Part shown: positions 46,131 to 47,674 of the stretch, piece by piece
How positions within the stretch are numbered: the stretch's first letter is position 1
Layout: every line of letters begins with the position of its first letter
Made by a program: the position numbers and the translations under genes
Sequence record: KT454806
Length of the DNA stretch: 64,000 bases
Strand: one strand, 5' to 3'
Source: Escherichia phage SUSP2
Notes under the pieces: generated by a model
The model's database searches: none
Seen by the model: the letters and a program-made list of their open reading frames with translations, nothing else
Told to the model about the DNA's origin: nothing

Positions 46131-47674
46131 ACGTCTATGCAATCCCTATGCAGAATCTATCTCATACATTTAGAACAATAACTCTATAGCTTACTCTATA
46201 TCCTCTTATCAAATCAACTTAAATATAAGCCAATAACCCAGAAAGGGGATGGCATTCTAAGTGGTATTGTTACCAATCCCTAAAACGCTCTATAAAGCCC
46301 TATAACAGCTTATCAATCAAACTTAAGCAATCATATTAACCCACTCTTAAAAGCCCTTTATAGAGCTTCCTATAGCCTTAAAAGAATCTTATAAGGGTAT
46401 AAGCTTATAAGCTGGCTAGTATCTTGTGAACTACTAAAAAGGGCTTGATAACACTTAAAAGGTATGCTATGGAAAGCTTAAAAGTAGCTATAAAGTTACG
46501 TAAAAGCTAGCCCCCTTAACATTTTCTTAACAAATTCTTAACAACTCCTGAATAGTCACCCTTGTTAGGGGTATGTTAAATCATTGTTAAGACCTTGTTA
46601 AACCCTTGTTAGACTCTTTGGCATACCCTTTAAAGCCCCTATAAAGCCCTATAAAGAGCTATACAGTTACTTGGGCTATAGATACTAGGAAGAACCTTAG
46701 AAGGGGCTATAGAGAGCTATACAGGGCTTTTAAAAGGTATGTTTAGAGAATCACTAAGAAGTAAAGGGAACTATAGACCAAGGGATAGTGACCATGTTAA
46801 TAGCTTGTTAAAAAGGTTAAACACTTGTTAGGAACTTGTTAATTATCTTAACAAAATAACCCTTTAAAATTAACTAATTGGTATTGTTACCAATCCCTGT
46901 TAGCACTTGTTAGCTATCTGTTAAGATTCTGTAAAGCCTATGTAGCACTTGTTAGAAACTTGTTACACCCTTGTTAGTCCTGTTAAGAATCTGTTAAGAC
47001 CTCTGAAGAGATGTTAAGAGGATGTAGCAACTGTTAAGAAATTGTTAATGATATTTTAAGATTTTGCAAAGGGACTGTAAGGGCGATGTTAAGGGCTACC
47101 AAGCAGATATACACCCTAGGTAGATATTTTTGAGTTCCTTCATAACACCTAAAAAATGACTTGACAGTTCTATTTTATAAAAATTTTAAGAATTGCATAA
47201 ATATCTATATAGTATTCTGTATAAAACAGGTAAATACAGGCTTATAAGATACCTTGTTAATACCGTGTTAGACCTTGTAGGATAAGCCTTAGAAGGTGAT
47301 ACCTGTTTAGTTAGTTAAAACAGTCTATATAGAGGATTAGTAGAACCTAGTGAACACCCTGTAGAGGGTACTATCGTTTACCTAGAGATTAAGATGGGTA
47401 TAGGGGCTTCTAAGGGGATATGAAGAGATGGTTAAGGTGATTATATAGGTTTGGAAGAGGATTGATTAGAGGGCTATTTAGAAGGGTTATACAGAGGGCT
47501 ATAGAAACTCACTGTTAAGAGACTAAGATACTATATAGTACTATATAACTATATAGAGAGTAAGATTAAGTAGGCTGTTAAGAAAGGTAGATATTTTATC
47601 ACATGATATGGTGACCCAAGATGAACGGAGTGAATCCAAATTTTATAAAAATTATAAATTTCGTAAATTTTACT
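46131..47674. repeat. 1.5 kb ORF-free region dense in short repeats
   Basis: Dozens of (C/T)TGTTA(A/G) units (cttgttag, ctgttaag, ttgttaa), ctatag/tataaag repeats; no ORF of 60 aa or more in any frame; lies between convergent gene blocks. Confidence 0.6.

Follow-up and report, generated by a model that had tools for sequence, protein, structure and literature searches.

A candidate terminal repeat filled with phased TGTTA units at the non-coding junction of Escherichia phage SUSP2

A non-coding junction between convergent gene blocks

Within the genome of Escherichia phage SUSP2 (KT454806), a long non-coding stretch rich in short TGTTA-type repeats separates a long plus-strand gene block on its left from a minus-strand block on its right, the two blocks converging on it. 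Comparison with related phages, presented below, indicates that the core of this stretch is very probably the direct terminal repeat (DTR) of the genome. All coordinates refer to the window, the 64,000-nucleotide stretch of DNA that was analysed. The stretch lies between the stop of a plus-strand open reading frame (ORF) at 46041 and that of a minus-strand ORF at 47709, and no ORF of at least 60 amino acids (aa) was found in any frame within 46042-47708 (1667 bp), the longest being 42 aa. An earlier note, made from the sequence alone, had described 46131-47674 as lacking such ORFs and as bounded by hairpin terminators. The first description holds for a slightly larger span than was given, and both hairpins fold as intrinsic terminators (Table 1).

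Table 1. Features of the non-coding junction of phage SUSP2 and of the terminal-repeat homologue within it (a slash marks the terminus).
Feature	Position	Strand	Remarks
Intrinsic terminator, end of plus-strand gene block	46083-46131	+	hairpin 46083-46125 followed by UUUUUU; -21.5 kcal/mol, z -4.4 (RNA fold)
Left flank; unique sequence that would lie inside the right-hand terminal repeat in the virion	46131-46509		quasi-palindromic CTWWWAAG: CTATAAAG, CTTAAAAG, CTTATAAG
Left boundary block AAAGTTACGTAAAAGCTA/GCCCCCTTAACAT	46492-46522		predicted terminus between 46509 and 46510; mean identity 94% over 12 phages
DTR homologue, 591 bp, single copy	46510-47100		end-to-end alignment with the exact terminal repeats of Ro111lw and E9
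Three reversed units CTTAACA, 11-bp spacing, adjoining the left terminus	46515-46545	-	highest-scoring two ArcA-matrix boxes in the window, 22.7 and 21.9 bits
Five forward TGTTA(A/G) units, exact 11-bp spacing	46563-46612	+	imperfect inverted repeat with the reversed units
DTR centre, repeats CCCTATAAAG, GCTATAGAG and GCTATACAG, period 10	46626-46735		repeat search; lies in the ~180-bp central part
Second cluster: four forward TGTTA, one degenerate GGTTA, one reversed	46795-46855	+	93-96% conserved across 12 phages
25-nt element CTAATTGGTATTGTTACCAATCCCT, internal palindrome	46874-46898		second copy at 46257-46281, outside the DTR, 96% identical
Third cluster: ~19 consecutive forward slots up to the right terminus	46898-47093	+	perfect TGTTA mixed with TGTAA, TGTAG and CTGAA
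Right boundary block ATGTTAAGGGCTACC/AAGCAGATATACA	47086-47113		predicted terminus between 47100 and 47101; invariant in 12 phages
Right flank; unique sequence that would lie inside the left-hand terminal repeat in the virion	47101-47674		80% mean identity over 12 phages
Invariant AT-rich 17-mer CTATTTTATAAAAATTT	47170-47186		right flank
Invariant block with two further TGTTA units	47236-47278		right flank
12-bp TTAGAGGGCTAT repeats, copy number variable	47466-47502		right flank
TACTATATAG, three copies	47529-47556		right flank
Intrinsic terminator, end of minus-strand gene block	47683-47700	-	followed by UUUUU; -12.3 kcal/mol, z -3.2 (RNA fold)

Repeat enrichment was scored over 46131-47674 against 500 dinucleotide-preserving shuffles. 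YTGTTAR occurred 22 times (19 on the plus and 3 on the minus strand) compared to 1.7 ± 1.2 in shuffled sequence (z 16.7), and TGTTAR 28 times compared to 3.1 (z 14.9). The ctatag and tataaag repeats seen previously were also recovered, with six sites for the CTATAG palindrome (z 3.8) and seven copies of CTATARAG compared to 0.5 shuffled (z 8.8). Relative to the rest of the window, YTGTTAR was 13 times and CTATAG 40 times as dense. The earlier note had considered that repeat density might merely be what base composition predicts, and the shuffles revealed a strong excess instead. Its picture of dozens of units in both orientations, packed across 1.5 kb, was correct as to their enrichment and presence but not as to orientation or spread. 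One direction dominates, with three to four reversed copies at one end, and 24 of the 28 TGTTAR copies are confined to 46510-47100 (1.5 expected there, z 18.7), with none in 46131-46509. This left part holds 16 copies of CTWWWAAG compared to 0.7 in the shuffles (z 15.5), and three of the CTATARAG copies fall within the DTR homologue, where 0.09 were found after shuffling.

The region was matched by 255-281 phage records, nearly all of them Ounavirinae, at 73-87% identity. The matching genera were Felixounavirus, Mooglevirus and Suspvirus, and the Erwinia Kolesnikvirus group gave short matches. The nearest records were the Suspvirus-like phages EP1 and CHB7 (~86-88%), the remaining genera showed 73-82% identity, and all recorded hosts of the matching phages were Enterobacterales. 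Against distant genera, the non-coding stretch aligned over its full length at 76-80% identity whereas several adjacent genes were only partly alignable; the whole 1.5 kb is thus under constraint. An Ounavirinae junction was also found at 135463-137039 of GU169904.1, the record of Staphylococcus phage SA1 (79% identity over 99% of the query); this record is probably chimeric or contaminated.

The terminal-repeat homologue and its boundaries

Comparison with related genomes, a check proposed in the earlier note, revealed what that note had not recognised, namely that the repeat-rich core corresponds to a terminal repeat. The records of Ro111lw and E9 carry exact repeats at both ends, of 613 bp (copies 100% identical) and 580 bp, respectively. 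In an alignment of 12 genomes, the first base of both repeats falls on 46510 and the last on 47100. The record of Erwinia phage MM7, from a different genus, carries an exact 444-bp repeat at both ends, and the right end of this repeat aligns to 47100/47101. Many further records open or close within the region, in every case at these two places, among them those of CRP22, ECP2307, MET-P1-301 and GE_vB_7A. In the 12-genome alignment each boundary falls in a block that does not vary among three genera (GTTACGTAAAAGCTA/GCCCCCTTAACATT on the left, GATGTTAAGGGCTACC/AAGCAGATATACA on the right), and MM7 has a counterpart of each (TTACGCTATGGTTA/GCCACTTTTACATTT on the left, GCGGCCACT/AAGTAGATATACA on the right). 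As the units at the left end are reversed, the same 10-mer, ATGTTAAGGG, is read pointing outward at both virion ends, 3 nt from the left terminus and 5 nt from the right.

Terminal repeats have been described in relatives of SUSP2. Short terminal repeats were inferred for Felix O1 (PMC3185647) and a 613-bp DTR was determined with PhageTerm in Ro111lw (PMC6454146). In UAB_Phi87, Bal31 digestion and run-off sequencing gave a 608-bp DTR with fixed, non-permuted ends, and TerL of the Felix O1-like phages was placed in the DTR clade (PMC4837284). A terminal repeat of ~0.6 kb in Felix O1-like phages is already known and this genome is another member. On the strength of the homology, we consider it highly probable that 46510-47100 is the terminal repeat of SUSP2, represented once, as in a concatemer junction or a circularised assembly. 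A packaging or termination site, one of the options listed in the earlier note, is thereby borne out as far as predicted physical genome termini are concerned, and the array may have a role in packaging.

The flanks of the DTR homologue differ in their own repeats (Table 1). CTWWWAAG recurs every 8-10 bp in the left flank (tandem-repeat periods 10 and 8), and this flank aligned over its full length with those of other genera at 76-81% identity. The MM7 left flank carries TTCTAAG at 11-bp spacing in place of CTWWWAAG, and the flank motif has therefore diverged between genera, unlike TGTTA. In the right flank, BPS15Q2 and VpaE1 carry a 24-nt insertion at 47119/47120, within ATGAGGTAGATTCTACCGAATCAACT and ~20 bp outside the right boundary, and CHB7 carries a 29-nt insertion at 47186/47187.

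Phasing and conservation of the TGTTA units

The DTR homologue contains 22 forward and 4 reversed perfect TGTTA cores, with ~8 degenerate units besides. Of 23 nearest-neighbour spacings, 13 were 11 bp and 4 were 20 bp, and each of these four spans a degenerate unit (GGTTA, TGTAG or CTGAA). The third cluster, which stops five bases before the right terminus, is likewise spaced at 11 bp, or 20 bp across a degenerate unit, with an average of ~10.4 bp per slot. This mixture of 11-bp steps and 9-10 bp resets means that the units stay in phase with the B-DNA helix across the repeat. Phase coherence (R) in the window was 0.60-0.63 at 10.5 bp and 0.78 at 10.4 bp, and reached 0.71-0.80 in 12 of 12 phages when calculated at the best period of each (10.2-10.5 bp).

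Conservation of the units was selective. Identity to the window over the 12 genomes was 89-96% at the five core positions and the purine after them, compared to 66-68% at spacer positions. The average conservation of the cores (93%) was significantly higher (Mann-Whitney, P = 2e-12) than that of the six neighbouring positions (72%). Each of these genomes carries 19-22 forward and 3-6 reversed perfect cores in a repeat of 569-633 bp. Among 45 genomes, DTR lengths clustered at 559, 569-570, 578-582, 589-592, 601-603, 612-614 and 633 bp, i.e., in steps of ~11 bp, or one unit (R 0.86 at period 11). The MM7 repeat was alignable only over ~120 bp at its right end and follows the same plan: its left end carries reversed units, and toward the right end the TGTTAAGA units are forward and 11 bp apart. 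Taken together, conserved cores, free spacers, kept phase and the gain or loss of whole units point to a cooperative protein array on one face of the DNA, and comparative sequence analysis thus indicates that the TGTTA units very probably form a protein-binding array. The earlier suggestion of such an array gained support from all of these features.

These same length steps bear on whether the region instead encodes a non-coding RNA or small unannotated proteins, since steps of ~11 bp would break any reading frame and leave no room for a conserved one. Some GenBank records do annotate ORFs of 30-60 aa here, against which stands the lack of any longer ORF already described, and promoter-like hexamers are present. 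However, sigma-70 promoter-like sites were not in excess (9 compared to 7.6 ± 3.1 in shuffled sequence) and the only good TTGACA, at 47161, is not conserved. A search of 45900-47900 gave no Rfam match at E <= 1, RNAalifold returned a covariation term of only -1 kcal/mol for the right flank in nine genomes, and the terminators on both sides would stop incoming transcription. The source of non-coding RNA that the earlier note had entertained thus found no support, and we regard a coding or RNA function as very improbable.

The 25-nt element (Table 1) has the consensus CTAA(G/T)TGGTATTGTTACCAATCCCT and the palindrome TTGGTA..TACCAA. Its two sites show the lowest conservation of the region (0.18 and 0.45 across the 12 phages), and Ro111lw has a copy inside its repeat. 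As the least conserved spots coincide with both copies, these look like lineage-specific insertions of a tiny mobile or recombination-prone element. Folded as single-stranded DNA, 46505-46620 gave a fold-back of -13.1 kcal/mol (z -2.6), and no fold-back was found when the right repeat end was folded in the same way. A hairpin-priming model was dropped, the fold-back at the left end being too weak and the right end having none.

We also scanned IMG/VR for three TGTTAR at 11-bp spacing. Dense arrays (at least 18 units per 600 bp) were confined to Ounavirinae. Smaller arrays, of 10-14 units, occur on a few unrelated contigs that have no proteins in common with the window and no tblastx similarity to it. 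On such viral contigs (L094, L122, L086, L097, L100 and L099) the TGTTAA units lie in intergenic regions at 11, 22 or 33-bp spacing. In L094 (IMG/VR 3300021399_000003, 169 kb), nine reversed and then five forward units occupy 7180-7535, ending in TGTTAAGGGCTGCCC, which resembles the right repeat end of the window, TGTTAAGGGCTACC; the neighbouring proteins in L094 have no Pfam match.

Possible roles of the array and relation to known systems

The explanation that we consider likely is that the region is a Felix O1-like concatemer junction comprising a DTR, two boundary cuts and an array of protein-bound TGTTA units. The DTR would be present once at each virion end and once per junction in replicating concatemers, with the convergent terminators insulating the flanks from the neighbouring genes. 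On the T7/T3 paradigm, genomes would be replicated as concatemers and the terminase would cut sequence-specifically at both conserved boundaries, GCTA/GCCCCC and GGGCTACC/AAGCAGATATACA, the repeat being duplicated during packaging. A sequence-specific protein would bind the TGTTA units, one outward-pointing unit abutting each terminus, and the resulting cooperative nucleoprotein array may mark the junction for terminase and position the two cuts. It could, for instance, consist of a small-terminase oligomer or an accessory protein that polymerises on one helical face, starting from the outward-pointing units at the termini; alternatively, the complex may pair repeats for recombination into concatemers. 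Candidate binders are a phage protein, for example the small terminase subunit, and host ArcA-P. A role of the units in packaging recognition is a tentative proposal, to which we give slightly less than even chances.

Several points weigh against this explanation. The termini of SUSP2 are deduced from homology and identical boundary sequences. In UAB_Phi87 (JN225449.1, 9000-22000), the homologous boundaries predict a repeat of 614 bp, with SpeI fragments of 4435 and 2747 bp at the termini; the published sizes, 4322 and 2819 bp, differ from these by 113 and 72 bp. The UAB_Phi87 record (87,603 bp; published as 87,669 bp) is not opened at the termini and is usable only via this restriction-fragment prediction; despite the 70-110 bp offset, the predicted and published fragments are the same two. 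Two Kolesnikvirus records that were reportedly opened at PhageTerm termini, Fifi318 (PQ051114.1) and Pistou (OQ818706.1), carry the homologous right-end block far from base 1, at 76648-76729 and 82591-82672, respectively. The Fifi318 announcement gives the PhageTerm-rearranged genome as the source of base 1. MM7 and Hena2 have this block at 335-420, within the repeat that opens their records. The window does not include the terminase genes, and none of the 25 Pfam families listed, of 69 found for its 95 ORFs, was a terminase family. Searches of PHROGs and Pfam found no DNA-binding domain in the 29 genes on either side of the region, the only matches being to families of unknown function, a lysozyme and an Ig-domain protein; among all 95 window ORFs, Pfam identified one HTH_3 and one DUF5681 protein. 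Finally, the binder may be of phage or host origin, and its binding may serve replication, recombination, end protection or regulation instead of packaging, which is our best guess.

Phased direct and inverted repeats beside AT-rich DNA are typical of iteron origins. Following this, the units could be replication-origin iterons and the invariant 17-mer at 47170-47186 the unwinding element, the terminal repeat merely overlapping them; such an origin need not exclude a terminal repeat. The most AT-rich 40-mers of the region (90% A+T) begin at 47172 and 47644, the first including the invariant 17-mer, and cumulative GC skew peaks at the region. This maximum coincides with the switch in transcription direction, however, and is therefore uninformative by itself. 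No DnaA box or IHF consensus was found in 46042-47708, and PHROGs and Pfam revealed no initiator-like or other DNA-binding domain in the neighbouring genes. Moreover, the array occupies precisely the terminal repeat, stopping at each of the two cut sites, which is predicted by termini and not by an origin. An origin, another of the options first put forward, lacks support in both box and nearby initiator gene, and we consider it distinctly unlikely. A scan for Chi found no site in the region.

A host protein was suggested by the units themselves. ArcA-P binds head-to-tail direct repeats with the core 5'-TGTTA-3' at a centre-to-centre spacing of 11 bp (sometimes 22 bp), 2-5 repeats make up its chromosomal sites, and the core variants TGTAA and TGTCA also function (PMC3798270, PMC4173790). 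The DTR units match these sites in core, in 11-bp spacing and in head-to-tail orientation. We asked how far the resemblance extends, using a matrix derived from 115 of 128 boxes published from chromatin immunoprecipitation sequencing (their Table S3; training scores 9.6-21.5 bits, median 15.7). The DTR homologue contains 16 boxes of at least 10 bits and 11 of at least 14 bits, a density of 18.6 per kb, with 0.08 per kb for the remainder of the window. The three highest (22.7, 21.9 and 21.5 bits) equal or exceed the best E. coli site. All 12 relatives and MM7 have 13-19 boxes per DTR, whilst random 591-bp pieces of the window had a mean of 0.33 and a maximum of 3. ArcA is conserved across Enterobacterales, the order to which all recorded hosts belong. 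The phage also encodes an anaerobic ribonucleotide reductase, which indicates that it replicates without oxygen.

The array could thus be a giant site for this redox regulator, which would coat the terminal repeat at low oxygen and serve packaging, replication or end protection in an architectural or regulatory capacity, or else would be titrated away from host promoters by the replicating phage DNA; this would be compatible with the region being a terminal repeat. The detail of the boxes argues otherwise. Their core score exceeded that of genuine ArcA boxes (15.8 compared to 12.1 bits), but their spacer and flank score was -1.35, where random sequence scored -2.1 and genuine boxes +3.7. The phage consensus, cTTGTTA(A/G)(G)a (TGTTAAGA in MM7), has a conserved G after the core, and G occupies box positions 7-8 in 26-58% of phage boxes compared to 3-8% of genuine ones. 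A phage protein with TGTTAAG specificity fits this extra G better than ArcA does. Felix O1-like phages are routinely grown aerobically, when ArcA-P is low. No literature link between ArcA and these phages was found, most subscription journals and theses lying outside the search. Similar arrays also occur on the unrelated metagenomic phage contigs, whose host is unknown, and the IMG/VR survey does not separate a host binder from a phage binder. Judged from the motifs, the array would operate as ArcA-type sites do, with tandem binding as in OmpR/PhoB-family regulators, and is not assignable as an ArcA site. Binding by ArcA-P itself we consider doubtful, and equally so its extension to the subfamily, in which the terminal repeats would be arrays of ~15-30 candidate ArcA-P sites forming oxygen-responsive nucleoprotein genome ends.

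Other features of the window were recorded alongside. The regions 10290-46041 and 58111-63578 encode, among other proteins, class I ribonucleotide reductase and anaerobic NrdD with its activase; NAPRTase, PRPP-synthetase-like proteins and a family A DNA polymerase are also encoded. Homing-endonuclease-like genes of the SegE-like GIY-YIG and HNH/AP2 types are present, and 25 tRNA genes are clustered at 58.1-63.6 kb. A 293-aa protein (53571-54452, minus strand) has two or three immunoglobulin-like domains (Ig_3, E = 1.6e-20; I-set, E = 3.5e-15), and its gene adjoins a lysozyme gene (53104-53565). GATC, the Dam, MboI and DpnII site, was absent from all 64 kb compared to 198 ± 13 occurrences in dinucleotide-preserving shuffles; the tetramer is thus completely counter-selected.

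Locating the terminal repeat settles the nature of the long non-coding stretch and gives the correct start and end for genome annotation, in a phage group used for Salmonella typing, biocontrol and therapy. The architecture of the array offers a way to approach the recognition and duplication of T7-type terminal repeats, processes that are poorly understood beyond T7 and T3, and the ArcA match turns a vague 'protein-binding array' into a directly testable proposal. Were ArcA-P the binder, host redox state would be tied in a novel way to the DNA transactions of a virulent phage. Hundreds of replicating genomes could then act as a sponge, stripping ArcA-P from host promoters and de-repressing respiration in the anaerobic gut.

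The closest known systems are the DTRs of the Felix O1-like phages themselves (UAB_Phi87, 608 bp; Ro111lw, 613 bp; FO1a; Felix O1), which have homologous sequence, the same boundaries and the same place between convergent blocks. There is no difference in kind, but the published descriptions give the repeat length only and not the phased TGTTA architecture. What is new relative to the known DTR is that phased, selectively conserved units, varying in number by whole copies, fill the repeat from cut to cut. No description of the phased architecture, the selective conservation, the unit-number polymorphism, the terminal 10-mer or the ArcA-type match was found in a literature search that was incomplete. 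In comparison to the ArcA boxes of E. coli, the units share the TGTTA core, the 11-bp head-to-tail arrangement, TGTAA variants and equal or higher scores. They differ in number (~30 compared to 2-5), in spacers that are not A/T-rich, in the G after the core and in not lying at a promoter, and binding is only predicted.

The junction of T7 and T3, reportedly described by Dunn and Studier in 1983, is said to consist of a 160-bp terminal repeat between the short imperfect repeat arrays SRL and SRR, which terminase cuts and duplicates. Both systems would combine a short non-permuted terminal repeat, a non-coding junction rich in short reiterated motifs, and site-specific cutting with duplication of the repeat. 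In SUSP2, however, the units fill the repeat instead of flanking it, are about four times more numerous and are strictly helically phased, one outward-pointing unit abuts each end, and convergent terminators would insulate the junction. Terminase sites built from reiterated motifs are also found in the R-sites of lambda cosB, the TGATCA/G hexamers of P1 pac and pacL/pacR of SPP1. There, as here, several short motifs lie by a cleavage site, and in those phages they assemble a small-terminase nucleoprotein complex. Those sites comprise 3-7 motifs over 100-200 bp with one cut, whereas here ~30 motifs span the interval between two predicted cuts.

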